Source: Thermoleophilaceae bacterium (GTDB lineage: Bacteria; Actinomycetota; Thermoleophilia; Solirubrobacterales; Thermoleophilaceae). From it: a stretch of 64,000 bases of DNA. Location: the NCBI GenBank assembly GCA_036259535.1, contig DATABO010000065.1, positions 13,624 through 77,623 on the forward strand, given 5' to 3'. Both the position numbers and the translations under genes were made by a program. This document shows, piece after piece, positions 23,239 through 45,112 of this stretch. Every line of letters starts with the position of its first letter. The first letter of the stretch is position 1. The notes beneath the pieces are model-generated. The model did not search any database. It had not been told where the DNA came from and saw nothing but the letters and a program-made list of their open reading frames with translations.

Positions 23239-23439
23239 GTGTCTCCCTTCGGGTAGAGACACCCGGGGTCCGTGCTCACGTGGCAGGCGATAACTTCCGT
23301 GCCGCGTCCGAGCTTCGGGTCGGGCGCCACGCCCCCGGCCGTTCGCGCGGTGCGGGGGCACTTACTTATTCGGTTGTCGCGGGCGATGCTACGACGCGAA
23401 TCGCCTGCTGTGGGCGATTTCGGCGAATCGTTACGTTCG

Positions 23440-24238: not shown

Positions 24239-24250
24239 GTCGTTCTCCTT

Positions 24251-24508: not shown

Positions 24509-24753
24509 CGGCTTGTCCTCCGTGTTGGTCGCTTGACGGGTAGGCGCAACACGGCCGCTTGAGGCGCAAGGGCGGAACCCGAAGCCCGTAGGGCGAGGGC
24601 GCGTCAGCGAGGCCGGCCCCGGCAGGGGGCGCCCGCAGGGCGACACGAAGTGCCGGCCTTGAAGCCCGGCGCCGCGGCCGTAAAGTGCCGACCGGCAAGC
24701 GACCGGCGGCGGAGGTCTCGATCGCGACCCCCGCCCCGGATCGTCAGGTGCGG

Positions 24754-25218
24754 CTAGGGCGTTTGCCTGGCGGCGATGGCCGACCGGACCTCCCTCAGCG
24801 GCTTCGGCTCGAAGTAGAGATCGCGCTCGGGCGGAAGTCCCATCGCGCGCACTCCTGCGAACTCGTCGAGGGATTGGTCGCCGAACTCGTCGCAGTCGGG
24901 GCCGAGGGCGGACAGGCAGAAGCCGGTCATGACCGGCATGTCGTCGTACTCGGTGATGGCGACGACGTAGTAGGTCCATCGTCCGGCCGGCACGAACAGC
25001 TTGACCTTGCAGACCATCTCGTCGTCGCCGTCGGGCAACTCGCGGTAGGTCGGCAGCTCGTCGGCGGTGAGGATGTAGTCGTAGGCCGGTCCCTGGAACT
25101 CGGGGAGCAGGCTGTTGAGGCGCCAGCGGATCGTCGGTACGCGCTCGCGCAGTCCGGGGCCTACACCGCCGGGGAGCTTGGCCAGCTCGTCGCCGGTGAT
25201 GAGTGTCGGATTGGACAT
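24754..25218 (-). CDS. DUF2958-domain protein (154 aa)
   Basis: KVKLFVPAGRWTYYVVAITEYDDMPVMTGFCLS...ERDLYFEPKPL matches the DUF2958 pattern common on plasmids and ICEs. ATG at 25218 with a GGAG SD. Confidence 0.75.
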   Translation of the reverse strand: MSNPTLITGDELAKLPGGVGPGLRERVPTIRWRLNSLLPEFQGPAYDYILTADELPTYRELPDGDDEMVCKVKLFVPAGRWTYYVVAITEYDDMPVMTGFCLSALGPDCDEFGDQSLDEFAGVRAMGLPPERDLYFEPKPLREVRSAIAARQTP

Positions 25219-25308
25219 GGGTTCTCCAATGGGTCGTGGCTCGCCGGATGCGGGCCGATCCCCTTCCGCCTGCACGCGCAGCGTGCGACTCTGGAAGGGG
25301 TCGGGCCG

Positions 25309-25524
25309 TCAGCCGGCGGCGTCGGTCTTCTCGCGCGCGACGAGGACGCTCAACGCCCATGAGGCGGTCTTGGCCTTCGAGGGGGCGTCGTCGCCGAGGT
25401 AGCTGATGAGCGATTGGCCGACCTCCGGCACGGTGAGCGCGTCGGCCGAGACCTGGCGCGCGAGGACGAGACCGTCGGCGCAGACGGCGACCATGTAGAA
25501 GGCGTCTTGTCCCTGGTCGTCCAT
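25309..25524 (-). CDS. Hypothetical protein (71 aa)
   Basis: ATG start 7 nt after the upstream stop. Strong third-position GC bias. No family recognised. Confidence 0.5.
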   Translation of the reverse strand: MDDQGQDAFYMVAVCADGLVLARQVSADALTVPEVGQSLISYLGDDAPSKAKTASWALSVLVAREKTDAAG

Positions 25525-25531
25525 GCCAGCA

Positions 25532-26038
25532 TCAGTCGTCGGGGAGTTCCACCTCGAAGCCGCAGACGCAAAGCTCGGCGGCGAGTGGCCGCAGCCGGCG
25601 GTAGTTCGGCGGGCGGTTGGCAGACCCGGGCTCGTACCAGCGTCCGAGCTGCGGCGACCAGCGAAAGCCGTAGTGCTCCGCCGCGCCGTCCCCGGCAGTC
25701 GTTCCGTCGAGCGTGGTGCCGGCCTCGCGGGAGTGGAGAACCGTCAGTAGCGGGCGGGTCTCCGACGACCAGGCGGCGGTCGATCCGTGGCCGTCGAGCT
25801 CGTCGGATCGAGGCGTGGCCGCGCCGCCACGCTTGGTCGCCATGTCGGCGGCGATCTCTCGACGCTCCCGCGCGATGTCGGTGTCAGGCGTGCGCTGGCG
25901 GTCTAGCAAGCGCCGGATCTGAGCTCCCGCGTCGGCCGCGGTGCGCGGCGTCGGGAAGGACTCGCCGCGCTCCATCGCAAGGTTGCGGAGCAACCGCTCC
26001 TGGGCCTGGGAGGGCTTGGTGTGTCGGGAATTGGGCAT
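25532..26038 (-). CDS. Hypothetical protein (168 aa); N-terminus resembles the DUF3072-type motif
   Basis: PSQAQERLLRNLAMERGESF...AGAQIRRLL fits the pattern xQxxxLxxLxxExGExF...IxxL. The resemblance is by eye only. Confidence 0.55.
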   Translation of the reverse strand: MPNSRHTKPSQAQERLLRNLAMERGESFPTPRTAADAGAQIRRLLDRQRTPDTDIARERREIAADMATKRGGAATPRSDELDGHGSTAAWSSETRPLLTVLHSREAGTTLDGTTAGDGAAEHYGFRWSPQLGRWYEPGSANRPPNYRRLRPLAAELCVCGFEVELPDD

Positions 26039-26172
26039 GGCCCGCCATCAGCAGCGCCGCGCCAGCGGTCTGCTAGGCGTGAAGGCCAGGGCCAATTTCC
26101 GGCACCTGCCCGCAGGGGCGCCCCGTCCTGGGGAGGACTGGACGAAGCGGCCCCGCGAGGCAGTCGGTGCGG

Positions 26173-27696
26173 CTAGTCCTGCGGTGCCGCGTCGTCGGGC
26201 GAAACGGCCTTGATGTCGGCCGACAGCAGCTCGACCGCCTCGCGCATCGCGTAGTTGCTCCACTTGACGCGCTTGTACTGCGGCAGCTCCCGCTCGTCGG
26301 CGAGATATGCCGCGACCAGGGCCTCGCCGAGCAGCTCCAGCACCTCGTTGGCGGACTTCGCTCGCTCGATAGCGCCCTTGAGATAGTCGAGCGCCCTCTG
26401 CGAGTCGGCGTACTCGACGTCCTCACGGGTCTCGTTGCGCGTCTTGAGCTTGCGCACCGTCACCTCCTGCAACTGCGGGAGGACGAGGCGCAGGCCGTCG
26501 GCAGGCATGTCCTGGTTGTCGTGGAGCACGATCGCCGCGATCGCCTTGGCGCGGGCGAGCGCCTGGGAGCTGCGAACCTTGCCGCCACGGCGTCCGATCA
26601 GCTTGTTGCCAAGCGTGAGGTTCCCCGGTCGAGCGGCCTTGGCGTCCTCGCGGGCCTGCGCGCGGCGCTCGCGCTCGACGTCGTTGCCGGCGCCGGAGGG
26701 CGAGTCCGACGGATCCGGCGCGATGCGCTCCGGGCTGGTCGCCTCCGCGCACTCCCGCTCGACGCGCTCGACGATCCGCTCTGCGAGATCGGCGAGGAAC
26801 TCGCGGTCGGTGACGAACATCCTGGTGTCGTCGCTCCACTGGCTCTCGGTGGTGTGCTCGAGCAGGCAGCCAGCGGCGCGGGTGGCGTCGACGTCGGCCT
26901 CGTCGATGTCGACCCACGGGTCGTCGCCCTCCTGGGGCGAGTCTCCGTAGGAGGGGTCGAGCGCCTTCTGCACGCGAACGATCAGCGCATCGCGATTCTC
27001 CCCCGGCTCCACGAGCTCGCTGAGGGGCATCGACCAGTCCAGCTCGATCATCGTCGGCGCGGGGTCGAAGGACTCCGACGCGGTGGAGACGAGGATGTCG
27101 CCGAAGCGGTTGAGCACGTCGCGGCCGTCGATCTCCTTGCGGACGACGTACTCGCACATGCACTCCGCGATCCGCGGCGAGACCTTGGCGACCTCGCGCA
27201 GGTCGCGCTCGGCGGCGACCGGCACGTGGCCAGCGGCGATGTGGCGCTGGACGCCAGCGGGCAGCTTGAGCAGGCGAAGCCGCTCACTGACCCAGTTGGC
27301 GGACTTGCCCACGCGGGCGCCGATCGCCTTGTGAGTGGTCAGGTTCTCGGCCTTGGCGAGGCGGGTCAACGCCTCGGCCTCCTCGATGACGTCGAGGTCG
27401 CGTCGGATCAGGTTCTCCGCGATCGCGGCGGCGAGCGCGTCGTCGCCGGGCCGGATCAGTACCGGCACGCGCGTCAGGCCGGCGCCCTTGGCCGCGAGCA
27501 GCCGTCGCTCGCCCGCTACGACGATGTAGCCGCCGTCGCCGTCCTCGCGGACGGTCAGGGCGGTGACGACACCCTGCTTGCGGATGCTGGCCTCCAGCTC
27601 CGCGAGCGAGGCGTCGTCGAAGCTCGAGCGCGGGTTGTGCCTGTCCTCGACGGTGATCTTGTCGATGTCGACCACTGCGGTCGTGTCGTCGCTCAT
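26173..27696 (-). CDS. ParB/Srx N-terminal-domain protein (507 aa), plasmid/ICE type
   Basis: VDIDKITVEDRHNPRSSFDDASLAELEASIRKQGVVTALTV...YIVVAGERRLLAAKGAGLTRVPVLI is a ParB-like domain. Strong SD (AAGGAGGAAA). The long C-terminal region is unassigned. Confidence 0.85.
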   Translation of the reverse strand: MSDDTTAVVDIDKITVEDRHNPRSSFDDASLAELEASIRKQGVVTALTVREDGDGGYIVVAGERRLLAAKGAGLTRVPVLIRPGDDALAAAIAENLIRRDLDVIEEAEALTRLAKAENLTTHKAIGARVGKSANWVSERLRLLKLPAGVQRHIAAGHVPVAAERDLREVAKVSPRIAECMCEYVVRKEIDGRDVLNRFGDILVSTASESFDPAPTMIELDWSMPLSELVEPGENRDALIVRVQKALDPSYGDSPQEGDDPWVDIDEADVDATRAAGCLLEHTTESQWSDDTRMFVTDREFLADLAERIVERVERECAEATSPERIAPDPSDSPSGAGNDVERERRAQAREDAKAARPGNLTLGNKLIGRRGGKVRSSQALARAKAIAAIVLHDNQDMPADGLRLVLPQLQEVTVRKLKTRNETREDVEYADSQRALDYLKGAIERAKSANEVLELLGEALVAAYLADERELPQYKRVKWSNYAMREAVELLSADIKAVSPDDAAPQD

Positions 27697-27870
27697 GGAC
27701 GTTTCCTCCTTGGTGCGGTTCCCCCTGCGGGAGTCCGCTTGGGGCGCTCGCCCGATGCGAGAGCCGGTGCCCCCGCTACCGCGCGCGGAGCGTGCGAAAA
27801 TGCGGGGTGCCGGTGACGCGAGGGTGAGGGCCGAACGGCGCCGGGATCGCGTGTCGCCCGCCGTCTGCGC

Positions 27871-28656
27871 TTAGGCCGCTGCATCGGGCTGGGGCGCGTC
27901 GTCGAGGCTGTCGATGAGGCGGTAGCCGACCCCGCGCACCGAGACGACCCATCCGGTCGCGCCGGCGGCGGCGAGCTTGCGGCGCAGCCGGCAAGCGTGA
28001 GCGTCGACCGTGCGGGTCTGACCGATCGTGCGGTAGCCCCAGACGTCGCGCAGCAGCTCGTTCTTGGTCTTCACGCGTGCCGGCTCGACGGCGAGCGCGG
28101 CGAGCAGCGCGAGCTCCATCCGCGTGAGGTTCAGCGGCTTGCCATCGAACGCCGCGGTGAGCGCGGCCTTGTCGATCGTCAGCGCCTCGCAGTCGATGGT
28201 CGCCGGGGCCGGGGCCGGGTCGACGGGCGCGGGGTCAGCCCTCGGGGCGTCGGTGTCGGCCGGTGCGAGGCGTGGCCCGCGGCGCAGGATGGCGAGCAGG
28301 CGGGCGGTGAGCTCGGCCTGTCCGATCGGCTTCGCGCGGAAGTCGTCAGCGCCTACGAGAAAGCAGCGCGTCAGGGCAAGCGCGTCGTCGTCCTCGGCGA
28401 GTACGAGCACTGGCGTCGCGTCGGGCTGCCCGGTGATCTCGCCACGGCGAAGCTGCTCGATCAGGCGTGCGTTGGTGCCGGCGCCGGGGAGGTCGCCGAG
28501 CACGATGATGTCGGGGCTGGCGACCCGGATGCCGGAGCGGAGTCGGTTCTCGGTCGAGGCGCCCGCGACGGCGAAGCCGTCGGTGATGAGGAAGCGGGCG
28601 AGCTGCTGGCGCAGGTTGCGGTCAGCGTCCGCGATCAGCACGGTTGCGCGGTTCAT
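27871..28656 (-). CDS. OmpR/PhoB-type response regulator (261 aa), orphan
   Basis: Receiver domain (VLIADADRN...DDFRAKP) plus a winged-helix output (LTRMELALLAAL...TVDAHACRLRRKL...VRGVGYRL). ATG at 28656 with a GAAGGAGAAG SD. No histidine kinase on the element. Confidence 0.85.
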   Translation of the reverse strand: MNRATVLIADADRNLRQQLARFLITDGFAVAGASTENRLRSGIRVASPDIIVLGDLPGAGTNARLIEQLRRGEITGQPDATPVLVLAEDDDALALTRCFLVGADDFRAKPIGQAELTARLLAILRRGPRLAPADTDAPRADPAPVDPAPAPATIDCEALTIDKAALTAAFDGKPLNLTRMELALLAALAVEPARVKTKNELLRDVWGYRTIGQTRTVDAHACRLRRKLAAAGATGWVVSVRGVGYRLIDSLDDAPQPDAAA

Positions 28657-28750
28657 CGAGTCTTCTCCTTCGGGAGTGGCCCCGCCCGTCGCGGGGCCGT
28701 CCCGCCGCCGTCCGCACCCCTTGGGTGCGAAAATCAAGGCGGGCGGACGC

Positions 28751-28776
28751 GGGCCGGGCGTGCTCGTGCCCGGCCC
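28751..28776 (-). terminator. GC-rich hairpin downstream of the 62-aa ORF (weak terminator candidate)
   Basis: GGGCCGGGC-N8-GCCCGGCCC is a perfect 9-bp stem. A T-rich run (TTGATTTTC) follows only about 15 nt further on the minus strand, so it is not canonical. Confidence 0.3.
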
Positions 28777-28788
28777 TTGGTCAGCAGG

Positions 28789-28977
28789 TCACTCGGCCTC
28801 GACCTGGGCGGGCACCTGGACGACCCCGGCGTCCTCGCAAGCGCGCAGGCGCTTGGCGCCGTCGACCAGCAGCTCACCTGGGGCCGGGCCCTGGTGGTGT
28901 CGGGATCGCTGCCGCCGGCCGTGGTGCGCTTCCACCCTCACTGGCGCGACCCGCAGCTGCAAGCGGCGTAGTTCCAC
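28789..28977 (-). CDS. Short ParB-N-domain-like ORF (62 aa), possibly a remnant
   Basis: The C-terminal half ELLVDGAKRLRACEDAGVVQVPAQV matches the xxDGxxRxxAxxxxG motif of ParB/Srx domains. GTG start. The protein is shorter than a full domain. Confidence 0.3.
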   Translation of the reverse strand: MELRRLQLRVAPVRVEAHHGRRQRSRHHQGPAPGELLVDGAKRLRACEDAGVVQVPAQVEAE

Positions 28978-28997
28978 GGCAACTCTCGGAGCCGTCG

Positions 28998-30410
28998 ATG
29001 AAATGCCGTGCGGACTGCAATCCTCACGTCATGGCATCGACGGCTCCGATCCCCGCTTCAAAGCTGTGCTGGTGGTGCAAGGATCCGGCGAACTCGCGCG
29101 AGCACAAGTTCAAGCGCAGCGATGTCGTTCGGGAGCACGGCAAGGGGCCGTACACCGGAGACGCGAAGCTCGTCCGCGTGACTGGCGAGGGCCGGTGGGA
29201 GATGCGCAGCAGCAAGAGCGGTCCGCTGAAGTTCGAGACCTCTCTGTGCGTTCGGTGTAACGACACGCGAAGCCAGCCCTTTGACGCGGCCTACGACAAG
29301 TTCATCGCCTGGCTGCTCGCGAACGAGGAGCTGGTGCTCAAGCAGCGGAAGTTCGATCTTCGCGCGATCTTCGGCGCCGATTGGGAGGCGGACGCGCTCA
29401 ACGTCTACCGCTTCTTGGTCAAGCACATCGGCTGTCGTCTCGCCGATGCCGACGACGGACTACTTCCGCCGAACGGCGTCATGGACGAACTGATCGCCTG
29501 CCTCGATGGCGGTGGTCCGGTCGAGTCGCTGGAGTGCAGCTTCTTCGTCGAGTCGGCGATGTTGCGGTGGTGTCAGATGCGGGACGACGACCCCCTGTGG
29601 GTTCGTCCGTTCGCGGTCGACACGATGCCGTTCACAAAGTCCAACGGCCAGCTCGAGGCCGTGTGGTCGACTTGGCGTTACGGCTGGATCACCTTCGCGT
29701 GGACGCTCGGCCCTGGAGCCTCGAAGCACTATCCGTTTCGCGACCGGGAAGTGCCGATGCCGATCGTGGCTGCGGCGACTGCATGGGATCCCTGGTTTGA
29801 GTTCGCGCTCGCCTGGGATCCCGCTCGGGGCGCCGAGGATGTCGGCGACGATGAGCCCCACCCGAACGACCAGATCGACCCCGAGAGTGCGCTCGATAGA
29901 TCGCCCGTCGCGCTCGCGTTCGCCGTCGGGGCGCTTGACTTCGAGGCTACGACTCGGCATGTCGGTCCAGACGAGCGCACCAACGGGTACGTTGAGGACG
30001 AGTCGTTGGTCGAACCTGAGCTGGAGCTCCAGCGTGCCGCGATGCTCGTCGCGGCCTGCCGCGGATGGGCCGAGGGTGACCTCGATGACGGCCGCGCGCG
30101 TCGAGTTGCCGAGAACGCCGAGCTGTCCGAGGCTGCAGCCCTCAAGGCTGAGAGCGATCGAATGCACGCGGCCCAAAGCGATGATCGGGCGGAGTCCCTG
30201 CGAACCGCCTTTGCGTGCATGGCGACCCTGAAGCTGTCCGAGGCGATTCTCGCGGACTTGCACTCCCAAGAGGGACAAGATGCGTTGGTTGACGTTGGCC
30301 GGTTCGCGGGATGCAGCGTGATGTCGGCGGCCTTCGCCGTGAGTGACATCGCGCGGGGATTCGAGAACGTCGCGGCTGTTGTCGCCGCACTTGCTCGCGC
30401 GGAACTTTGA
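28998..30410 (+). CDS. HNH-type (HNH_5-like) nuclease-domain protein with a large unassigned C-terminal region (470 aa)
   Basis: CWWCKDPANSREHKFKRSDV...SLCVRCNDTRSQPFD fits the pattern CxxC..EH..CxxCN. The ATG at 28998 has GGAG 6 nt upstream. The track ORF from 28644 is over-extended. Confidence 0.7.
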   Translation: MKCRADCNPHVMASTAPIPASKLCWWCKDPANSREHKFKRSDVVREHGKGPYTGDAKLVRVTGEGRWEMRSSKSGPLKFETSLCVRCNDTRSQPFDAAYDKFIAWLLANEELVLKQRKFDLRAIFGADWEADALNVYRFLVKHIGCRLADADDGLLPPNGVMDELIACLDGGGPVESLECSFFVESAMLRWCQMRDDDPLWVRPFAVDTMPFTKSNGQLEAVWSTWRYGWITFAWTLGPGASKHYPFRDREVPMPIVAAATAWDPWFEFALAWDPARGAEDVGDDEPHPNDQIDPESALDRSPVALAFAVGALDFEATTRHVGPDERTNGYVEDESLVEPELELQRAAMLVAACRGWAEGDLDDGRARRVAENAELSEAAALKAESDRMHAAQSDDRAESLRTAFACMATLKLSEAILADLHSQEGQDALVDVGRFAGCSVMSAAFAVSDIARGFENVAAVVAALARAEL

Positions 30411-30417
30411 TGCGCGG

Positions 30418-31185
30418 CTAGCTCGGCGGGCGGCCGATGACGCCGGTGACGTAGAGCTGGTCGAAGGTCTCGACCACTTCCTCCATGCGCTTGGCCATCG
30501 GCCGGAGCTGCTCGACGTAGAACCCGCTGTTGGGACCGTAGAGGAAGCTGAGCGCGTCACCGACGAGCAGCAGGACCTCTTGGAGGATCGGCCCGACGGC
30601 GGCGAGGTAGTCGACGCGGCGATGGATGCGCGGGTCGGGTCCGTAGACCATCGTCCGCGCCTCGAAGTCGACCGCCTCGTCTACGACCTGGCGGTAGTGG
30701 TGGGGTCCTTTGGAGAGGCGGCCGTAGATCGTGCGTGACAGCTCGGCGACGTTCTCGATGTTGCCGGGATCTATGCCTGCCTCACGCATTTCGGCGGCGA
30801 CGCGCTTGGCCTCGCGCTCCTGCGCCTTGCGGAGCTCGGACTGCTTGATCTCCTTGTTCGCCAGCCAGCTGCGGAGGATGGCGTCTTCCTCGGGATTGGC
30901 CAGGACGGCTACTAGCCGGCTGCCCTCGTGGATGCTGCGGATGAGAGGGAGCGTCTGTTGGGTGTAGCCATCCTCAAGCTGGTCGACGAGGGCGGTCGCC
31001 TGAGCGATCACGTCGCCGGCGACCTTCCAGACGGCCGGCTCGCGGTCCTCGCTGTCGATGCCAGGCGGCGTGTCTATCCCCCAGGTGGCGTGGCGGTCTG
31101 CGAGCCAGCCGATCGCATCTCGGTAGAAGTCGAGCGTCGAGGCGATCGCCTTCTGGCTGCGCTCAGGCTCGGGATCGAGGGCCAT
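30418..31185 (-). CDS. Hypothetical helical protein (255 aa), 25 nt downstream of the relaxase gene
   Basis: Clean ATG ORF with good codon bias. It faintly resembles DUF5677/AbiV-like helical proteins by eye (unverified). Confidence 0.6.
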   Translation of the reverse strand: MALDPEPERSQKAIASTLDFYRDAIGWLADRHATWGIDTPPGIDSEDREPAVWKVAGDVIAQATALVDQLEDGYTQQTLPLIRSIHEGSRLVAVLANPEEDAILRSWLANKEIKQSELRKAQEREAKRVAAEMREAGIDPGNIENVAELSRTIYGRLSKGPHHYRQVVDEAVDFEARTMVYGPDPRIHRRVDYLAAVGPILQEVLLLVGDALSFLYGPNSGFYVEQLRPMAKRMEEVVETFDQLYVTGVIGRPPS

Positions 31186-31210
31186 CGCGCAAGCCTACGG
31201 CCGGCGCCTG

Positions 31211-34200
31211 TCAGCGCGAGAGGCCGGGCGCCTCGGGCTGAGGCGTGAGGTCGGGTGTCGGGTCGACGTCGGGTGTATCGAACAGCAGCTCGGCGAGCTT
31301 GTGGGTGTGCTGCCAGTCAGCTGCTTGGCGGCCGGTGAGGCTGGTGGGGTCGTGGTCGTGCGGGTATTCGCCGTATTGGAGGCGGTAGGACTCTTGAGCG
31401 GCGACGGCTTGCTCCCAGCGCTCGCGGTCGGTGGGCGCCTCGGGCCGCTGGCCGAGCTGGCGCTCGATGGCGGGGTCGGTGTCGAGCGCGGCGATCCGTG
31501 TCGCACGCCAGTGGGCGTGCGCGCGGCGTGCGGCTAGCTCGCGCTCGGCGGCGGTGGCGTCGACGATCTCCATTTCGTGCTGGTCGATGACCGTGGCGGG
31601 ATCGACGGAGGCGGTGTCTGTGCGGTCAGCGACCTCGGCGCGGGCGGCGGTGAGCGCATGGTCGAGCTGGTGGATGCGCTGGTTGAGGGTGGCGCGGCGG
31701 TCGCGGTCGCGGCGGGCGAGCCCGTCGCGCTCCTGGCGGGCGTTCGCGAGCAGTCCGTCAAGGTGGGCGGCGTTGGCGGCGGCGCGCTCGAGCAGCTCGG
31801 CGTCGCGGGCGCGGCGAGCATGACGTGGGATCGTGGAGAGGATTCGCTCGCCGCGGTCGCGGATCTCGATGAGCTGGGCGGTGGTGAGCTGGCCGAGGTC
31901 GGCGTCGATCTCGCTGACGTCGACCGCGAGCTGCTTGGCGCGCTCGACGCCGAGGGCTCGCTCTAGCTCGTCGTAGAGGGGCTGGTCTTGCAGGCCGGGG
32001 AGCTGCGCACGGTCGAGGTCTGCGTCCTGGCCGACGTTGATGTAGAAGCGCGAGCTGTCGGTGTGACGCGACGAAGCGACGTAGCCGAGCTCGCGGGCGA
32101 GGTCGGGCGAGCCCAAGACGAAGGTGTCGCCGATCGTCATGCCCTGGGACTTGTGGACGGTCTGGGCGTAGCCGTGGCTGAGATGGCCGTCGGCGAGGTA
32201 GTCGGCGGGCAGGATCACCTCGGGGCCGGCGTCGAGTGCGGCGTGCAGCTCGCCGGCCTGGTGGTCGGTGCGGGTGACGGTGGCGCGGTTGCCGTTTCGC
32301 AGCCTGTGGCTGCCCTCGTCGGTCGTCGCGACCCACTGGTTGCGCAAGGCGAGCACGCGATCGCCTTCGGCGAACAGCCGGTCGCCGACGACGAGGGCGG
32401 TGCTGTCGTCGAGGTCGCCGGCCGCGACACGCGCCTGGCGGGCGAGGTCATTGAGGGCGTGGGCCTCGTCGCGGGTGGCGGTGAGCATCTGCGTCTCGAC
32501 CTGCCCATGCTCGCGGGCGGCGACGAACCAGTCGGCGACGAGCTGATGGAGCTGGTCGTCGGCGCCCTGGCATGGGACGAGCCGGCCGTGCTGGTCGTAG
32601 GCGGCGACCCACTCGGAGATGTCGCCGTGGCGGAGCTGGTCGAGCGCCTCGCGGTCCCAGGCGTGCTGTTGGCGGTAGACCTCCGTCAGCTCGATCGTGC
32701 CGAGCCGGTCGGCGAGAGCGGCGAAGCCGCCGCCGGCCTCGACGGCGGCTAGCTGGCGCTCGTCGCCGATCAGCACGACCTTGGCGTTGGCCTGGGCCGC
32801 GTGGTCGAGCAGCCGGGCCATGCGGCGGGTGTCGACCATCCCGGCCTCATCGACGACGAGGACGGTGCGCGCACCGAGTGTCCAGTCGCCGCCGCGGTCG
32901 AGGTCTTGGAGCAGTCCGTGGACTGTGTAGCTGTCGATCCCGCCACGGGCGCGCAGCTCGTCGGCGGCCCGGCCGGCGAGCGCGGCGCCGACGACGCGGT
33001 GCCCGGCCTGCTCCCACAGCTCGCGCGCCGCGTCGATCGCCGTCGTCTTGCCGGTCCCGGCCCTGGCGCGCACGACCTCGACCCCGTGACCGGACGCGAC
33101 GAGCGATCGGACCATCCGCTGCTGCTCGTCGGAGAGCACTAGCCCGCCGGGCCGCCGCGCGAACAGGTCGTCGCCATCGGCGAGCCGGACGACTCCCGCT
33201 CCCTCCCCCACCCTGCCGAGGGCCTGGTCGACCATCGCGGCCTCCACGGAGAGCATGTCCGCCGTGGTCAGCGCGGCCTCTCTGCCCGCTCCGGCAGCCC
33301 GGCCGCGCACCCGTGGCCCGGCGGCCTGCTCACCGTCAACGACCACGACCTGATCGGAAGCGATCAGCCGATCGGCGATGTCCTCGATCCTCTCGATCGA
33401 CCCGCCCCGGCCATGTGCGGCGGCGAGGTTCTGGACGACCTGGCGGCGGTGGAAGGTCGACCGCTCGCTGGTCAGTCCCTCGGCGGCGATCAGCTCGCCG
33501 ATGGTCTCGCCGATCTCCAACCGGTCGAGGTCGCGGAACTCGCCACGGCCGATCGCGCCGGCCAGCTCGTCGGGTCCGAATCCGTGCTCTTGGGCGACGG
33601 CCCGCCACTGGTCGCGCTGCTCGGCGAGGTCGAAGGACTCCTTGCCCTTGCGTGTCGACAAGGCGGCGATCTCGGCCTCGCGGGCACTCGTCCGGCCGGC
33701 TCGGTCGAGGGTGTCGAGGATCTGCTTGCGGCGCTTGGACAGCGCGAGCGCGAGCGGCCGGGGAACCCCAGCGATCTCGGCGGCGCCCTTGTGGACATCG
33801 GTCCACTGGACGCCGAGCTCGCGGGTCAGCCGCTCGCGCAGCTCGGCTTGGAAGACGTAGCCGGCGGCCATCCGGTGCTGGTAGAGGTCGCGGGCGTCGA
33901 GGGTCCGCCAGGCGTCCTCGACGCCTTGGGCGGGGTCGCCGCAGCGGGTCATGTTCGCGACGAGGAAGTGGACGTGGATGTGCGGGTCGCCCTCGCGGGA
34001 GAAGCGGTGCGGGAACGCCGCGCCGATGAACCCCTCCCCCTCCAGCGGGATGTGTCCGCCGCGCCCGGCGCGCGATGTGCAGGCGTGCCGCTCGAGGTAG
34101 CCGAGCGCGGCCCGGCCGGCTCCGTGGGTGGCCTCCCACACCGCCTCGGCGACCTGCGGCTGGCCGTACTCGTCGGCGAGCGCCCAGAGCGTCGAGACCG

Positions 34201-34492
34201 ACTTCGGGACGGCCATCTGGAGGTCGATGCCCTTGACTGCGTGCTCGCCGGGAGGGCGGCCGAGCTGGTCGCCGCTGACCGGGTGGCGGCACTCGAACAG
34301 GGCTTGCAGCTCGCCGTCTTGGACCTGTCCGGCAAGGCCGAGGTTCGCGGCTCCCCGGCCGGTCCAAGTGCCGGGCGCCTCGCCCTTGCCGGAGTAGTAG
34401 TCCTCGGCGCCCTGGGCGACCTGCTGGGTGTAGTAGTCGGGGGTGCGCCAGTGGCCTCCCCCGCGTCCTCCGATCTTGCCGATGGTGAGCAT
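31211..34492 (-). CDS. MobF-family relaxase/helicase (TrwC/TraA-like, 1093 aa)
   Basis: MLTIGKIGGRGGGHWRTPDYYTQQVAQGAEDYYSGKGE is a TrwC-type N-terminus with catalytic Tyr candidates. His triad in REGDPHIHVHFLVAN. RecD-like helicase Walker A in RARAGTGKTT. The track ORF to 34699 has a Pro-rich false extension. Confidence 0.93.
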   Translation of the reverse strand: MLTIGKIGGRGGGHWRTPDYYTQQVAQGAEDYYSGKGEAPGTWTGRGAANLGLAGQVQDGELQALFECRHPVSGDQLGRPPGEHAVKGIDLQMAVPKSVSTLWALADEYGQPQVAEAVWEATHGAGRAALGYLERHACTSRAGRGGHIPLEGEGFIGAAFPHRFSREGDPHIHVHFLVANMTRCGDPAQGVEDAWRTLDARDLYQHRMAAGYVFQAELRERLTRELGVQWTDVHKGAAEIAGVPRPLALALSKRRKQILDTLDRAGRTSAREAEIAALSTRKGKESFDLAEQRDQWRAVAQEHGFGPDELAGAIGRGEFRDLDRLEIGETIGELIAAEGLTSERSTFHRRQVVQNLAAAHGRGGSIERIEDIADRLIASDQVVVVDGEQAAGPRVRGRAAGAGREAALTTADMLSVEAAMVDQALGRVGEGAGVVRLADGDDLFARRPGGLVLSDEQQRMVRSLVASGHGVEVVRARAGTGKTTAIDAARELWEQAGHRVVGAALAGRAADELRARGGIDSYTVHGLLQDLDRGGDWTLGARTVLVVDEAGMVDTRRMARLLDHAAQANAKVVLIGDERQLAAVEAGGGFAALADRLGTIELTEVYRQQHAWDREALDQLRHGDISEWVAAYDQHGRLVPCQGADDQLHQLVADWFVAAREHGQVETQMLTATRDEAHALNDLARQARVAAGDLDDSTALVVGDRLFAEGDRVLALRNQWVATTDEGSHRLRNGNRATVTRTDHQAGELHAALDAGPEVILPADYLADGHLSHGYAQTVHKSQGMTIGDTFVLGSPDLARELGYVASSRHTDSSRFYINVGQDADLDRAQLPGLQDQPLYDELERALGVERAKQLAVDVSEIDADLGQLTTAQLIEIRDRGERILSTIPRHARRARDAELLERAAANAAHLDGLLANARQERDGLARRDRDRRATLNQRIHQLDHALTAARAEVADRTDTASVDPATVIDQHEMEIVDATAAERELAARRAHAHWRATRIAALDTDPAIERQLGQRPEAPTDRERWEQAVAAQESYRLQYGEYPHDHDPTSLTGRQAADWQHTHKLAELLFDTPDVDPTPDLTPQPEAPGLSR

Positions 34493-34824
34493 CGGAGGGG
34501 TAGACGCAACCTTGGTGCAAGTGTGTGATCCGTTGGGCGGTCCCGTAGGGAGCGGCTGCTGTTGTGGAGGGGTGGGAGCCGAGCGGAGCGAGGCGAGCGG
34601 GCCGGTCAGAAGTGGTGTCGTGCTGTGGCGGTGAGGGTGCGGACGGTTCTGAAGCGGTGCGGTGGAGCTGGCGGGTGGGCGCGTCAGACTGGGGAACAAG
34701 TGTTCGTGTCGTGGTCGACAGTCGAGCCGGTCCGGAGCCGGTGAGCCGCCATCCCGATCCGGTGGACGCGTACCGCCAGGCAGTCGCCGAGAACCGGCCG
34801 CCGGCTCAGATGTCAGGCCGGCTT

Positions 34825-34938
34825 CCTCGGCCGCGCAAGATCGGCGCCAGCATCGCCCGCGCAGACATCGCCCACTTCCTCCTGTCCCAAGTAGATGATC
34901 GGCGCTTCACTCGAGCGGCACCCGCGATCAGCGGGTGA
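34825..34938 (+). pseudogene. 3' fragment of an NAD(P)H-binding (NmrA/flavin-reductase-like) oxidoreductase gene
   Basis: Only the C-terminal ..PRKIGASIARADIAHFLLSQVDDRRFTRAAPAISG-stop is protein-like. It resembles the C-terminus of NAD(P)H-binding SDR-like proteins. The upstream part of the ORF is non-coding-like. Confidence 0.4.
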
Positions 34939-35006
34939 CAGCCCCCGCGCTTGGCCCGAGCATGTGCTGAGAGGACGGCGCGGGCGATCCGAGAAGCCCT
35001 GTCCTC

Positions 35007-35044
35007 GGCAGGACAAGCGCCCGTAGCTCAGTGGATGGAGCGCC
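35007..35044 (+). pseudogene. Third tRNA-Arg(CCG) 5'-half copy (internal att-like junction)
   Basis: GCGCCCGTAGCTCAGTGGATGGAGCGCCGCC CTCCGGA, then GCAGCAGCGCC..., which cannot pair with it. It shares the CCTCCGGA core with 18624, 37997 and 38231. Confidence 0.6.
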
Positions 35045-35556
35045 GCCCTCCGGAGCAGCAGCGCCTGTCGCCTGCGGCGGGCGTCGGGCCTCAGTGATCG
35101 GCTACCTCGAGGCTCACTCCGGTCTCGCTCCCAGCGCTTGGCATGGCATTCGGTGCAGGCCGAGCATCGGTATGGGGAAGGACTACCGGCTCCGTGGGAG
35201 GTATGTCGCTTTCGAGCATCGAGGTTCTCCTCTCCGCTTCTGGCCTCGTTGTCCCAACGAACACCACCAGCCGGCGCATCGGGTCTCCCATCGCTCTCTT
35301 CGCTCGCTGACTTGGCTCCTACCCTTGGCCGGTCGAAACGACGCATTCTCGTTCCGCCGCCACGCGTCTCCCCGATGTCGGGAGGTCGTCCGACGAACGA
35401 GCGGCGGATTGCTCTAGTCGACTGAGTCGCCAGCGAAGACGCTGAGATCGGTGCTCACGACGGAGCGGTGGGTCGTCTGGACCTTGATCTGCCCGTGCCC
35501 AGTCCGCGACCCCGTGCCAGGACAACACGGAAGCGTCTACACTCGTGCGACGTGGC

Positions 35557-35675
35557 TTGACGCTGGACCCTTGCTCTTGGGGCACTTTGCCGGATCACGG
35601 GTCGCCTGCGAATCGTCCGTTTCCTTCTTCGCATCGCGGTCCTCATTTGAGGGAGGCGGAGGAAGGCGGCTCGCC
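35557..35675 (+). promoter_or_regulatory. Conserved promoter/structured 5' leader of DUF2294 gene (copy 1)
   Basis: TTGACG -35-like hexamer plus a leader alignable nearly base-for-base with 39099-39214. Stem GGGTCGC..GCGGTCC (35599-35605 / 35636-35642) plus an inner GCGAA/TTCGC stem. The loop is CCGUUUCCUUC. Confidence 0.5.
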
Positions 35676-36077
35676 ATGACTGGCAGCCACACGGCGGAGC
35701 ATCCATCTGGAGGCGTTACTGCCTCAGCTGTCTCCAACGGGGTCGTGCGCCTGCTCAGGGAGTACACCGGCCGCGGCCCCACGCGGGCGCGTACCCATCT
35801 CAACGACGATCTCGTGACCGTCGTGTTGGAGGACACCCTGACCAAGGGGGAGCGGAGCCTCGTCGCCGATGGCGAGACGGCCCTCGTCCTCCAAGCACGC
35901 CAGGCGTACCAGCGGACGATGAAATCCGACCTGATCGACCTCGTCGAGCAGGCGACTGGCCGCAAGGTCCGCGCATTCCTCAGCGCCAACAACGTCGATC
36001 CCGACGTTGCGGTCGAGTCGTTCGTCCTCGAGCCGAGCGCGACTGCTTCGGTCAGCCAAGACGGATACTCCGACTAG
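35676..36077 (+). CDS. DUF2294-domain protein (133 aa), paralogue of 39215-39616
   Basis: SNGVVRLLREYTGRGPTRARTHLNDDLVTVVLEDTLTKGERSL...GRKVRAFLSANNVDPDVAVESFVLEP fits the DUF2294 pattern. ATG at 35676 after GAGGGAGGCGGAGGAAGG. Confidence 0.85.
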   Translation: MTGSHTAEHPSGGVTASAVSNGVVRLLREYTGRGPTRARTHLNDDLVTVVLEDTLTKGERSLVADGETALVLQARQAYQRTMKSDLIDLVEQATGRKVRAFLSANNVDPDVAVESFVLEPSATASVSQDGYSD

Positions 36078-36090
36078 CTGGCCTCGCGGG

Positions 36091-36468
36091 TCAAGCCGCG
36101 TTTGGGGACTCTGTGGTGTCGGCGTGAGAGGCCGTGTGAGCCTTTCCGTTGCCCGGGTCGATGAACGTGACCTGGCGGTCGATCTGGCAGACCTCGAACG
36201 GCCGCCATGCTGGGCCGGTCGGGCGCACGACTAGGAATCGGATGCCGCGCCCCGCCGCGCGCCGATGGTTGCAGACCACCATGTGGATGCCCGACGAATC
36301 GCAGAAGGCGACCTCGCTCAGGTCGAGGACGATGGTCTCGGGACAGCGCGAGAAGGCTCCGTCCAGGGCGTGGCGAACGGTCTCCACGGACGCCAGATCG
36401 ATCTCGCCTCGAATGGCCACGATCTGGGTCGTACCGAGAACATCTGACTGAACGTCTACAAGCGGCAT
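36091..36468 (-). CDS. STAS-domain protein (anti-sigma-factor antagonist family, 125 aa)
   Basis: IVAIRGEIDLASVETVRHALDGAF...IVLDLSEVAFCDSSGIHMVV is a SpoIIAA/RsbV-like motif with the DSSG phospho-Ser site. ATG at 36468 with a GAGGAG SD. Confidence 0.85.
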   Translation of the reverse strand: MPLVDVQSDVLGTTQIVAIRGEIDLASVETVRHALDGAFSRCPETIVLDLSEVAFCDSSGIHMVVCNHRRAAGRGIRFLVVRPTGPAWRPFEVCQIDRQVTFIDPGNGKAHTASHADTTESPNAA

Positions 36469-36655
36469 GCCGGCTCCTCGAAGATCCTGTTCTCCGAGGG
36501 ACCGACGCACCCATCGACTGCGCCCGGCCGTCCTCGTGCACTGCGTGAGCCGCACAGCTCTCGTCTGCTGAGCCCGTACGTCGATATTAGCGCCGGCTCG
36601 GCCTTTCCGACCAGAGCAACCACGGTTGTTCCGGCATCCGCCGCAAGGGGAAGCG

Positions 36656-37330
36656 CTAGCCGGTCACGCCGGTGTGATCGTGCGCCTCGCCGACGGGCTT
36701 GGACTCGGGAGAGCCGCGCTGGCGCAGGTAGACGGCGAGGATCGCCATCGAGCCGACCGCGAGGAACTCGGACTGCCAGTTCTGCAGCGTCCGCTCCCAG
36801 AAGTCGGCGCTGCCGAGGTACTGCACGAAGTCGAGCCCAGACTGGTGGTGCTCGAGCCGCTCCTCGTTGTAGGCGACGCGGCCGGTGATCGCCTGGCCGA
36901 GCCAGGACAGCAGCCAGATCGCGCCCATTACGATCAGCAGCGAGTTCGAGAACGCGCGCGTGCGCAGGCCGCCGGCGCGAGCCCACAGCGGCGAGTCCTC
37001 ATCGGCGTGGCGACCAACCTTCTGCTCCTCGTCCGACTCGCCGCCGGCCTGGTCGAGCTCCTTGGACTCCGGCGACCCGCGCTGCAGGAACCAGACCGTG
37101 GCGGTGGTGTAGAGCGCAAACTGGAGGTACTCCGACTGCCAGTTCTCGAGCATCGCGACGCCGAACTCCGACGACAGCAGGTAGCGGCCGTAGCCGATCG
37201 ACTCGCCGTCGTGGCGCAGCTGGCTGTTGTTGAAGTCCTGCCAGCCGGCCAGCGACTGCAGGCCCAGCGCGATCAGGAAGATCGTGAGGAAGAAGATCGA
37301 CAGGCTGTTCTCGCGCAGGAACCGCTTCAC
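36656..37330 (-). CDS. DUF6766-family membrane protein (224 aa, internal duplication)
   Basis: Two repeats of NWQSE(Y/F)L...(FL/YL)(Q/R)QRGSPESK. The GTG at 37330 overlaps the stop of a 27-codon micro-ORF (GTGA). Confidence 0.8.
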   Translation of the reverse strand: MKRFLRENSLSIFFLTIFLIALGLQSLAGWQDFNNSQLRHDGESIGYGRYLLSSEFGVAMLENWQSEYLQFALYTTATVWFLQRGSPESKELDQAGGESDEEQKVGRHADEDSPLWARAGGLRTRAFSNSLLIVMGAIWLLSWLGQAITGRVAYNEERLEHHQSGLDFVQYLGSADFWERTLQNWQSEFLAVGSMAILAVYLRQRGSPESKPVGEAHDHTGVTG

Positions 37331-37410
37331 TGGCCTATCAGCCCGATCACGATGTAGAGGGCCAGGCCGAGCGCGATGATCGCGGTGTAGGTCCAGAACA
37401 TCACCCTCAT
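37327..37410 (-). CDS. Hydrophobic micro-protein (27 aa), not in the ORF track
   Basis: ATG AGG GTG ATG TTC TGG... encodes MRVMFWTYTAIIALGLALYIVIGLIGQ-stop. Strong third-position GC. Its ATG overlaps the lipoprotein stop (TGATG). Its stop overlaps the next GTG (GTGA). Confidence 0.45.
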   Translation of the reverse strand: MRVMFWTYTAIIALGLALYIVIGLIGQ

Positions 37411-37820
37411 CAGGACTCGACCTCGCAGTCATAGGGCGCTTCCTGATCGGGCACCGGCCGGCATCCGGCGGCCGTCACCAGCCAGCCGTGCTCGCCGGTC
37501 TCCTCGACGAAGACGCTGTCGCCGCCGTCGATCTCGACCTTCGCCTCGGTGACATAGGCCTGCTCGCCGGTAACGCGCGTACCGGACAGGTCGAGCGCAA
37601 GCACCGCCTCGGGGCACGGCTTGCGCTCGTCCTTCTCCAGCTGCTCGCGTGTGTCGTCGCTGAACTGCGCGCAGGCGGTCTCGCCGTCCTGGTCGGCGTA
37701 GGCGGCGTAGAGCCGCTCAGCGGCGCCGGCGGCCCCGTCCGAGTCGGTCGCCCCGCAGCCACCCAGCACGAGTGCGAGTGTCGCGGCTACCAGGACGGCG
37801 CGGTACGGGAACGCCGCCAT
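37410..37820 (-). CDS. Putative lipoprotein (136 aa)
   Basis: MAAFPYRAVLVAATLALVLGGCGATD is a signal peptide with an LVLGGC lipobox. ATG at 37820. Confidence 0.75.
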   Translation of the reverse strand: MAAFPYRAVLVAATLALVLGGCGATDSDGAAGAAERLYAAYADQDGETACAQFSDDTREQLEKDERKPCPEAVLALDLSGTRVTGEQAYVTEAKVEIDGGDSVFVEETGEHGWLVTAAGCRPVPDQEAPYDCEVES

Positions 37821-37966
37821 GCCACTTCTGTTCCCCGTGGCATGCCACGGGCAAACCACGCCTGGCCACTCAAGCTCCGTGCCGCGGATCCCACACAGCT
37901 GGCCAAGCCTTCGCTTCGATCCCGCCTGAGTAGGACAGCGCGGAATCCCTATCCTCTACGACCTAA

Positions 37967-38039
37967 GCGCCCGTAGCTCAGAGGATAGAGCGTCCGCCTC
38001 CGGAGCGGAAGGTCGCTGGTTCGACTCCAGCCGGGCGCG
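37967..38039 (+). tRNA. tRNA-Arg (anticodon CCG), intact, carried inside the insertion
   Basis: GCGCCCG TA GCTC AGAGGATA GAGC G TCCGC CTCCGGA GCGGA AGGTC GCTGG TTCGACT CCAGC CGGGCGC G. All four stems pair perfectly. 73 nt, CCA not encoded. Confidence 0.95.
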
Positions 38040-38101
38040 TTTCCGGGCGGGCTCTCGGCGGTCGTGAGGGCGTTGTCACGGCCGCCGGGAGGCCGGAAAT
38101 C

Positions 38102-38125
38102 GCTGGCCAGAACTCTGGCCAAAAC
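38102..38125 (+). repeat. Tandem 12-nt repeat GCTGGCCAGAAC TCTGGCCAAAAC (candidate arm-type sites, P arm)
   Basis: Matches 18728-18751 (22/24 by hand), including the trailing CCCC(C)G. Lies 106 nt left of the attR core. Confidence 0.5.
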
Positions 38126-38230
38126 CCCCGTAAACGCCGTCGATCCGACGCGATATGATGGCCGGACGATGACACTGAGCGCCTCCGATTTGCCTGCAAA
38201 TCGGCGCGATTCGAACCTAGCTGACGCGGT

Positions 38231-38273
38231 CCTCCGGAGCAAGAGGTCGCTGGTTCGAATCCAGCCGGGCGCG
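38231..38273 (+). pseudogene. Displaced 3' half of the host tRNA-Arg(CCG) gene (attR junction)
   Basis: C CTCCGGA GCAAG AGGTC GCTGG TTCGAAT CCAGC CGGGCGC G. GCAAG complements the CTTGC of the 5' half at 18594-18631. Upstream of the core there is no D arm or acceptor. Confidence 0.8.
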
Positions 38274-43695: not shown

Positions 43696-44931
43696 CTAGG
43701 CGACGGCTCCGACGCCCGCCGCGCTGGCGAACGACTCGGCCGTCGGGTCGACGTCGATCGTCTGGAAGCTGCCGCGCACCGCGTCGAGCGTCTTCAGGCC
43801 CTCGCCGGTGATCACCAGGACGACGCGCTCGTCGCGGCCGATCTCGCCACGCTCGGCGAGCTTCGCCAGCGTCGCGGTGGTCACCCCGCCCGCCGTCTCG
43901 GTGAAGATCCCGGTCGTCTCGGCGAGCAGCCGGATGCCGGCGCGGATCTCGTCGTCGGTCACGGAGTCGACGCCCCCCTCGGTGCGCCGGGCGAGGTCGA
44001 GCGCGTACGGGCCATCGGCGGGGTTGCCGATTGCCAGCGACTTGGCGATCGTCTCGGGCTTGACCGGAGCGCAGAAGTCGCGCCCGGCCTCGTAGGCCTG
44101 GGCGACCGGCGAGCAGCCCTCGGCCTGCCCGCCGTTGAACTTCGGCAGCTCGCCCTCAACCAAGCCGACCTCGCCCCACTCCTCGAAGCCGCGGGCGATC
44201 TTCGTGAACAGCGAGCCGGAGGCGACGGGCACGACCACGCGGTCGGGCAGCTCCCAGCCGAGCTGCTCGGCGATCTCGTAGCCGACCGTCTTCGACCCCT
44301 CGGAGTAGTACGGCCTCATGTTGACGTTGACGAACGCCCAGTCGCGCTCGCCGGAGAGCTCGGTGCAGAGCCGGTTGACGTCGTCGTAGTTGCCGTCGAC
44401 GGCGACGAGGTTGGTGCCGTAGACGCCGGTCGCGAGGATCTTCTGCTCCTCGAGGTCTGCCGGCACGAAGACATAGGACTCCAGGCCCGCTGCGGCCGCA
44501 TGGGCGGCGACGGCGTTGGCGAGGTTGCCCGTCGACGCGCAGGCGACGACCTCGTAGCCGAGCTCCTGCGCCTTCGCCAGCGCAACCGTCACGACGCGGT
44601 CCTTGAACGAGTGGGTCGGGTTGGCGGCGTCGTTCTTGACCCAGACCTCGCCGAGGCCGAGGCGCTCGGCGAGCCGGTCCGCGCGTACCAGCGGCGTCAC
44701 CCCGGCGGCCAGCGCCGTGCGCGGCTGCGACTCGAACGGCAGGAAGTCCGAGTAGCGCCAGATCGACTGGGGGCCCGCCTGGATCTTGCGCCGCGTCTCG
44801 GCGGCGTCGAGCCCGGAGAAGTCGTACGCCACCTCGAGCGGCCCGAAGCAGTCGTCGCAGACGTAGCGCGCCTCGAGCGGATAGGTGGTCCCGCACTCCT
44901 TGCACTTCAGCGCTTCTAGAGCCATGCCCAT
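43696..44931 (-). CDS. Threonine-synthase-family PLP enzyme with N-terminal zinc ribbon (MetM/homocysteine-synthase candidate)
   Basis: MGMALEALKCKECGTTYPLEARYVCDDCFGPLEV is the Zn ribbon. PLP lysine motif NPTHSFKDR. ATG at 44931 after GAAGGGA. The track ORF to 45000 is over-extended. Confidence 0.9.
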   Translation of the reverse strand: MGMALEALKCKECGTTYPLEARYVCDDCFGPLEVAYDFSGLDAAETRRKIQAGPQSIWRYSDFLPFESQPRTALAAGVTPLVRADRLAERLGLGEVWVKNDAANPTHSFKDRVVTVALAKAQELGYEVVACASTGNLANAVAAHAAAAGLESYVFVPADLEEQKILATGVYGTNLVAVDGNYDDVNRLCTELSGERDWAFVNVNMRPYYSEGSKTVGYEIAEQLGWELPDRVVVPVASGSLFTKIARGFEEWGEVGLVEGELPKFNGGQAEGCSPVAQAYEAGRDFCAPVKPETIAKSLAIGNPADGPYALDLARRTEGGVDSVTDDEIRAGIRLLAETTGIFTETAGGVTTATLAKLAERGEIGRDERVVLVITGEGLKTLDAVRGSFQTIDVDPTAESFASAAGVGAVA

Positions 44932-44992
44932 GGTCCCTTCAATGTCGAAAGCCTCCGCCGCGTTGCTCGTGACGGAGGCCTCTGAAGGGCTT

Positions 44993-45112
44993 CGCCACAT
45001 CTTTCAGGCCCGTGGGCCTGATGGACTTGGCACCTTTCCCTGCGACCTTGGTCGCCTGGATGGTTGCCGGGGTTTCGTAGGGCCATTTCCCTCCACCCCT
45101 CTGGATGCGTGC
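44993..45112 (-). promoter_or_regulatory. SAM-I (S-box) riboswitch aptamer
   Basis: The minus strand reads CAUCCAGAGGGGUGGAGGGAAAUGGCCCUACGAAACCCCGGCAACC...AAAGGUGCCAAGUCCAUCAGGCCCACGGGCCUGAAAGAUG. This matches the SAM-I core almost position for position. CCCUUCA downstream (44983-44989) can pair with the UGAAGGG SD. Confidence 0.88.

Follow-up and report, generated by a model that had tools for sequence, protein, structure and literature searches.

An element-borne tRNA-Arg(CCG) as a likely replacement for the host gene split by a relaxase-bearing element in a Thermoleophilaceae bacterium

Introduction

Genomic islands normally restore the tRNA gene that they target (Islander, anticodon-centred attP; PMC4383910). 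In tRNA-dependent lysogeny, which was described in actinobacteriophages (Fionnbharth K4, Cluster L, Gaia, and Gordonia CQ2/DL), the phage integrates in a tRNA gene through a core of 8–17 bp and the tRNA is not rebuilt (Guerrero-Bustamante & Hatfull, mBio 2024, PMC10865867). These phages bring a cognate tRNA, without which lysogens are not viable, whereas close phage relatives with cores of 43–50 bp rebuild the tRNA and have no tRNA of their own. The published targets of the tRNA-dependent phages are tRNA-Lys, tRNA-Ile2, and tRNA-Leu, and the relationship between the canonical, rebuilding mode and the tRNA-dependent mode was stated to be unclear. Anti-defence roles for phage tRNAs were also raised in that study.

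A comparable arrangement was described in integrative and conjugative elements (ICEs) of the Pasteurellaceae (ICEPmu1/ICEMh1/ICEHin1056 type), in which the host tRNA-Leu is disrupted and an anticodon-loop remnant of 10–13 nt is found at each end (Beker et al. 2018, PMC6028734). An intact tRNA-Leu at the element end was stated to be the replacement.

Here we analyzed a 64-kb stretch of Thermoleophilaceae DNA, the whole of which is referred to as the window. A first-pass annotation had proposed that an insertion in the window carries an intact tRNA-Arg(CCG) as a replacement for the host gene that the insertion disrupts. We characterized the tRNA pieces, the element that contains them, and its relatives in other genomes and metagenomes, and we weighed the replacement proposal against other histories of the locus.

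Results

ARAGORN identified a single tRNA in the window, referred to as tRNA C (37967-38039, + strand). It is a tRNA-Arg(CCG) and scored 68.9 bits with the Rfam tRNA model (gathering cut-off, 29 bits). It lies inside the insertion, as first reported. The distance to the right end had been given as 192 nt; we measured 191 nt from the 3' end of tRNA C to the right-hand core. A pattern search for tRNA halves recovered this intact gene together with two 5' halves (A and B) and one 3' half (D). The four pieces each start or stop at the anticodon-loop octamer CCTCCGGA, the 8-bp core, which occurs four times in the window, always within a tRNA piece.

Halves A and D are the two parts of one gene. Half A (18594-18631, + strand) ends with the core at 18624-18631 and was assigned to the 5' half of the native host tRNA-Arg(CCG), at the attL junction, from the pattern search, the sequence, and synteny. 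Piece D (38231-38273, + strand), at attR, consists of the core at 38231-38238 followed by the native 3' half with the stem strand GCAAG. When half A and positions 38239-38273 were joined at CCTCCGGA, ARAGORN called a perfect tRNA-Arg(CCG) with the anticodon stem CTTGC/GCAAG, and the two host halves described earlier are thus real.

tRNA C has the same anticodon and a different sequence. Its anticodon stem is TCCGC/GCGGA rather than CTTGC/GCAAG, a difference of three compensated pairs, and it is one base apart from the host gene in the D loop (AGAGGATA in tRNA C, AGTGGATA in A + D) and one base apart in the T loop (TTCGACT in tRNA C, TTCGAAT in A + D). All the differences listed in the first-pass annotation were found in the sequence, and its conclusion that tRNA C is not a recombinant of the host halves proved right. 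The TCCGC/GCGGA stem type is also found in the native gene of a related metagenome locus (L030), and the 5' half at the sister element L001 has the same stem type. The T stem GCTGG/CCAGC is common to tRNA C and host half D (38239-38273); the other native alleles seen have GCAGG, GCAAG, or GTAGG. This common T stem suggests that tRNA C came from a very close relative of the host, or that gene conversion occurred between C and D.

Half B (35017-35054, + strand), found by the pattern search and absent from the first-pass annotation, is an orphan 5' half that represents a third allele of tRNA-Arg(CCG), with the stem CCGCC, as in the native gene of L025, and with a G at position 21 in the D loop. 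It ends exactly at the core CCTCCGGA, after which the sequence is unrelated. Tested as a decayed 3' half or as an element end, the sequence after B showed no similarity to either, and the window contains no matching 3' half. Half B may have been left behind by an integrase that acted on an earlier tRNA carried by the element.

To place the split gene in its chromosomal context, we compared the left flank of the element with related metagenome loci. Five of them (L025, L026, L028, L029, and L030) have an intact tRNA-Arg(CCG) exactly at the position of half A. The tRNA gene in these loci is divergent from a phosphoesterase gene whose product is 61–69% identical to that encoded in the left flank, and the next two genes are also syntenic. 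A TAGACT-type -10-like box lies at -16 to -18 of the native genes, and half A has TAGACT at -18; boxes of the forms TAGACT, TACCCT, and TAAGCT were seen upstream of half A in the window and of the genes in L025, L026, L028, and L029. By synteny with the five loci, the split gene (A + D) is the native chromosomal tRNA-Arg(CCG).

The closest relative of the host left flank was locus L027 (JGI Ga0190275_10000078), with 72–88% protein identity and the TCTAGACTGA box in common. At 5890-5975 (minus strand) of this locus, the native site contains only a decayed tRNA-Arg pseudogene, which adjoins a CNNM/CorC transporter gene. With the native copy reduced to a pseudogene, this lineage must have a gene at another site that reads CGG.

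The element that splits the gene occupies 18632-38230 (19.6 kb; 19,607 bp core to core). It interrupts the native tRNA-Arg(CCG) in the anticodon loop, at 18631/38231, and its ends have the 8-bp CCTCCGGA in common. Nearly identical tandem repeats are located ~100 nt inside both ends. Those of the P arm (18729-18756, + strand) consist of two copies of CTGGCCAAAAC followed by CCCCCG, and those of the P' arm (38103-38130, + strand) are identical to them at 27 of 28 positions. Equivalent repeats were found at an equal distance in every relative examined (including L001, L105, and L011-L018), and right-arm repeats of similar form were found in L006 and L012. The tandem repeats are likely arm-type integrase sites, and since matching arm repeats are present at both ends, both ends belong to one attachment site. 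Neither the GTDB representative genomes nor the viral contigs contained an exact copy of the arm-repeat motif GGCCARAACTCTGGCCAAAACCCC.

Behind the left arm lies a gene for an Xis-like helix-turn-helix protein (18788-19195, + strand), a candidate recombination directionality factor. Its match to Pfam HTH_17 was weak (E 0.0011; 19.6 bits, under the Pfam cut-off of 27), and its position upstream of int is conserved among relatives. It is followed by the gene for a tyrosine integrase of 491 aa (19231-20706, + strand; PF00589, E 4e-18), whose catalytic residues R304, K329, H407, R410, H433, and Y443 do not vary across the family alignment. We found ~28 homologues of the integrase, of which the named ones all belong to the Solirubrobacterales/Thermoleophilaceae. 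Likewise, the named homologues of the relaxase are all from Solirubrobacterales or Thermoleophilaceae.

Further inside, a conserved backbone on the minus strand (22509-28189) encodes, by Pfam, a GNAT protein, a DUF2958 protein, a ParB-like protein (26173-27696), and a response-regulator-like protein. It showed 83% nucleotide identity to L001 and L002. The gene for a TrwC (MOBF) relaxase-helicase of 1162 aa (31211-34699, minus strand; PF08751, E 6e-78, plus AAA_30) was 88–92% identical at the nucleotide level to relaxase genes in other Thermoleophilaceae elements. Two regions of the element, 20970-23400 and 28900-31200, have lower GC and a weak third-position GC bias. Their ORFs had no Pfam match above the gathering cut-off, with sub-threshold matches to CorA and DUF5677, and the two regions stand where the sister element L001 has genes for SSB, a 3D-domain protein, and a VirB4-like protein.

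The Pfam scans of the element ORFs detected no coupling protein (T4CP), VirB4-class ATPase, or other type IV secretion system (T4SS) genes, and coupling-protein and VirB4-type genes are present in the sister L001 and in the related locus L005. A self-transmissible ICE has a relaxase, a coupling protein, and a T4SS. With a relaxase and without T4CP or VirB4, the element is best named an integrative mobilizable element or a trimmed ICE. It is probably mobilizable and may be mobile today, or, lacking T4SS genes, it may be a decaying, immobile remnant. Nor is the element a prophage. It encodes a relaxase, a ParB-like protein, and a DUF2958 protein, its ORFs contained no phage structural domains in the Pfam scans, and neither an exact match to its arm-repeat motif nor a relative of its integrase was found in viral contigs. 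When the whole element was compared with plasmids using Megablast, only the tRNA itself matched.

Next to tRNA C, on the minus strand (36654-37859), are genes for a DUF6766 protein (Pfam, E 4e-92) and a protein of 149 aa. Similarity to the chromosomal loci L022-L024, at 87–88% nucleotide identity, was confined to the 1.1 kb with the two genes (36654-37777), and these loci have no tRNA nearby. Homologous loci were found in several Thermoleophilaceae MAGs, with a small protein of 135–149 aa across loci. By these matches, the DUF6766 pair is a conserved chromosomal cassette that was captured as cargo by the element, and the DUF6766 gene is not an element marker. We also considered whether tRNA C could be the host's own gene, its DUF6766 neighbour looking vertically inherited and chromosomal. 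This was ruled out by the synteny that places the native gene at half A, and the DUF6766 loci of the relatives, which have no tRNA, further speak against it. Outside the element, we observed a SAM (S-box) riboswitch at 44994-45111 (minus strand, 82 bits), upstream of a 434-aa gene (43696-45000) and unrelated to tRNA C.

We asked whether either junction could form a tRNA. ARAGORN called none in the attL hybrid, in attR, in half B, or in the reconstructed attP, and the attL hybrid, which is without a T arm, scored 23.5 bits with the Rfam tRNA model, under the cut-off of 29. The 35 nt after the left-hand core, in the integrase-proximal arm (18632-18666, + strand), are a decayed 3' half. In register, they matched real tRNA-Arg 3' halves at 20–24 of 35 positions (20–22 in the ungapped count for 18632-18666), compared with 10.5 ± 2.7 identities (maximum 21) for random 35-mers from the window. 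With an 8-bp core and a decayed 3' half, neither junction is a working tRNA, and the host gene is therefore inactive while the element stays integrated. An attP tDNA fragment that restores a functional gene, as in Islander, has its counterpart here in a fragment that is present and decayed.

The same relic was found at the junction of L001, an element from an independent metagenome whose integrase is 90% identical. There, a tRNA-Arg 5' half with a stem different from that of half A is followed by the core and then by a sequence identical to the decayed 3' half of the window at 33 of 35 positions. Because L001 has the same relic beside a different allele, the decay is placed in the attP of the element lineage and not in this insertion.

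The anticodon-loop core CTCCGGAG is a palindrome. In the reconstructed attP (38193-38238 with 18624-18666), an imperfect inverted repeat, CGATTcGAaCCTaG / CGATTgGAgCCTtG, is located on its two sides; part of this repeat is a T-loop-like GGTTCGAATCG (38207-38217, minus strand). The right arm of L006 has TTCGAA at a comparable distance. These inverted repeats may be core-type integrase sites.

Relatives of the integrase showed the conventional arrangement. All 11 family members from GTDB genomes (L010-L020, 51–56% identity) have an intact tRNA beside xis/int according to ARAGORN, for Val, Ala, or His. L012 is a complete conventional element of 10.4 kb, in which the tRNA-Ala is rebuilt with a 3' half supplied by the element. 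The identity between its two ends begins exactly at the anticodon loop, arm repeats are present in both arms, and no spare tRNA was found in the complete element. At 10296-10620 of L012, the tRNA-Ala(CGC) element is directly followed by a second copy of the 3' half and a left arm, so that two elements stand in tandem at a single tRNA. Closer to the window is L105, whose integrase is 64% identical. It adjoins an intact tRNA-Arg(CCG), from which an arm repeat of the same type is separated by 63 nt. Judged from its integrase-side end, L105 apparently rebuilds the same target tRNA-Arg(CCG).

L006, a right end recovered with a related relaxase module, contains no spare tRNA. At 8304-8500 (minus strand) it is the right end of a tRNA-Ala(CGC) element with the arm repeats GGGCCCAAATCGGGGCCCAAACCCC. 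The tRNA-Ala that ARAGORN called after these repeats has a 5' part that mispairs with the acceptor 3' strand, and it probably joins a pseudo-5' half from the element to a host 3' half. The relaxase search also retrieved elements at other tRNAs (His and Ala), indicating that the modules have been shuffled. In the tRNA-His(GTG) relatives (L004/L020, 9315-9389; L007/L008, 6842-6915), the tRNA is in the opposite orientation relative to xis/int, and an intact tRNA-His adjoins the integrase end in one element and the relaxase end in another. Some family members may thus supply the 5' half, or may carry a whole tRNA in attP. Compared with these relatives, the lineage of the window is read as a derived state, with decay of the half that rebuilds the tRNA and with a complete gene on the other arm. 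The decayed 3' half suggests descent from a conventional, gene-rebuilding ancestor.

Several features bear on whether the carried copy is functional. tRNA C retains every conserved tRNA position, and the changes in its stem are compensated. A sequence TATCCT (37950-37955, + strand), 12–17 nt upstream of tRNA C and with the spacing seen in the native genes, is a putative -10-like box; a scan for consensus sigma-70 promoters around tRNA C found nothing. Directly 3' of the gene is a strong hairpin (38040-38099, + strand; -41.3 kcal/mol, z -4.3), as well folded by none of 200 shuffled sequences. It has no U tract and was negative in the terminator scan, and it is a candidate terminator or processing signal. 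CGG accounts for 22% of Arg codons in the host genes, or ~20 per 1000 codons. tRNA C would be expressed, and the host may depend on it.

Discussion

We consider it probable that the element-borne tRNA C replaces the host tRNA-Arg(CCG) that was broken by integration of the element. The integrase would have recombined the attachment site of the element with the anticodon loop of the native tRNA-Arg(CCG). With only 8 bp in common and the integrase-side 3' half decayed, this exchange would produce no working junction tRNA, and the host gene would be off for the duration of integration. tRNA C would supply CGG decoding, with its own -10-like box and downstream hairpin. It lies on the other arm, at a distance of 63 nt from the arm-type integrase sites that follow it and of 191 nt from the crossover core. 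Precise excision would rejoin A and D.

The anatomy of the locus agrees with this reading at each point where the sequence allows a prediction: the native gene is split, the junctions are not tRNAs, and the inner copy is intact with its conserved features. The replacement proposed at first pass also gains from the contrast with integrase relatives that rebuild their target and have no spare, which was seen in L012 and, at its integrase-side end, in L105. It has precedents as well, since the same arrangement was experimentally shown in phages and described in ICEs.

Half B and the arm geometry around tRNA C hint at a history more complicated than that of one element with a purpose-carried gene, and at stacked integrations. 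The distance from the anticodon loop of tRNA C to the 38103 repeats is 98 nt and that from the left-arm core to its repeat is 97 nt, and the left arm, L105, and tRNA C also agree in the spacing between tRNA and repeat (61–63 nt). This geometry is what a collapsed conventional element would leave. It can be read, in an account that the first-pass annotation lacked and that we regard as unlikely, as the result of several accreted integrations in the order 5'A / E1 ... 5'B / remnant ... 5'C / collapsed element / 3'D. tRNA C would then be a junction product. One element would have contributed, from its end, the 5' half and the promoter; the 3' half, the 63-nt spacer, and the arm repeats would derive from the integrase-side arm of another, L105-like conventional element, which collapsed through recombination between its left- and right-arm repeats. 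tRNA C would still substitute for the host gene, as a by-product of accretion and not as carried cargo.

Besides the matching distances, the window has three 5' halves compared with two 3' halves, and tandem arrays are known in the integrase family (L012). Nevertheless, the accretion account needs a type of element that supplies the 5' half at this end, and none was observed in the lineage. Downstream of the 38103 repeats, the sequence is similar to the right arms of L006 and L012, but the repeats themselves are identical at 27 of 28 positions to those of the left arm beside the sole integrase, as expected of the arms of one element, and the similarity of the spacer after tRNA C to left-arm spacers was not significant. 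Upstream of B and C, an in-register block at -24 to -11 has 12 of 14 positions in common, and a weak CTGGCCAAgcC motif is present 98 nt upstream of the anticodon loop of tRNA C. However, the upstream similarity of B and C was not significant in a whole-region shuffle test, weak arm-type motifs upstream of the two pieces were at background level, and no arm repeats were found upstream of B. The sequence after B also resembles no element end. In either history, the native gene is now broken, and the one intact tRNA-Arg(CCG) observed lies between the arm-bearing cores.

It is also conceivable, at a still lower probability, that a second tRNA-Arg(CCG) or a tRNA-Arg(UCG) reads CGG in this host, and that tRNA C is dispensable, being retained because it adds to codon supply or acts as a decoy against defences that target tRNAs. 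Small actinobacterial tRNA sets, such as that of M. smegmatis, usually have one tRNA-Arg(CCG), which argues against such redundancy. Lineages can live without a copy at the native locus, as the pseudogene in L027 indicates, and anti-defence roles for phage tRNAs were raised in PMC10865867. Yet the anticodon of tRNA C is exactly that of the destroyed gene, and the tRNA sits on an arm of the attachment site. Moreover, decay of the rebuilding 3' half is confined to this lineage, and relatives without a spare keep theirs intact. Finally, a tRNA rebuilt at attL whose 3' half decayed in this chromosome once the element became immobile would fit the clearly decayed 3' half after the core and the lack of T4SS genes, but it is extremely improbable given that L001, from an independent metagenome and beside a different tRNA allele, has the same decayed half.

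Returning to replacement by tRNA C, the observations can be joined in a wider reading, which we put forward as doubtful. The integrase probably has core-type binding sites in the anticodon stem, and tRNA C would then be both a spare and a portable attachment site open to the family's own integrase. Half B would be what is left of an earlier spare that was attacked, and the three compensated stem changes of tRNA C would have been selected to hide it from the integrase yet keep its function. Together with the decayed 3' half and L105, the locus would record a conversion from the rebuilding to the tRNA-dependent mode.

Of the features that define tRNA-dependent integration in phages, the element has a tyrosine integrase at an attB in a tRNA gene, a short core, and a cognate tRNA inside the element. 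A further feature in the phages is a single-copy, essential host tRNA with a carried copy that integrants need for viability; for the present host, the frequency of CGG codons is indirect support for such a state. Like the tRNA-dependent phages, it combines this integrase with arm-type sites in an actinobacterial host, its core is short (8 bp here and 8 bp in Gaia), no tRNA is rebuilt, and the carried tRNA has the same anticodon as the target; relatives with integrases of the same family rebuild the tRNA and have no copy of their own. Unlike the phages, it encodes a TrwC relaxase and a ParB-like protein with no virion genes detected, it targets tRNA-Arg(CCG) with a crossover in the anticodon loop, and its attP retains an in-register decayed 3' half.

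By the published description, the Pasteurellaceae ICEs resemble the element in arrangement: both are conjugative-type elements with a disrupted tRNA and an intact copy. Those ICEs are found in gammaproteobacterial hosts at tRNA-Leu and are large and self-transmissible with a full transfer apparatus, whereas the element here is without T4SS genes. The conventional islands L012 and L105 have in common with the element the integrase family (51–65% identity), the anticodon-loop crossover, and the arm-repeat architecture, and L105 also has the same target. However, the attP 3' half is functional and attL is rebuilt in L012 and apparently in L105, and L012 has no spare, while the element combines a decayed half with a complete gene.

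The replacement logic is not new, because it was described for actinobacteriophages (PMC10865867) and Pasteurellaceae ICEs (PMC6028734). The mechanism is already published, and the locus is a new example rather than a new mechanism. Searches of the open-access literature yielded no description of such an arrangement, either in Thermoleophilia or at tRNA-Arg(CCG). The locus adds to a known strategy a relaxase-bearing element that is not a phage, the target tRNA-Arg(CCG), and the little-studied soil class Thermoleophilia. Island finders that seek an intact tRNA plus a displaced fragment would misplace such elements. The evolutionary value of the locus lies in its decayed, in-register 3' half, considered together with an apparently rebuilding sister, L105, with a 64%-identical integrase and the same target. 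This combination points to a change from canonical to tRNA-dependent integration, at least in this lineage.
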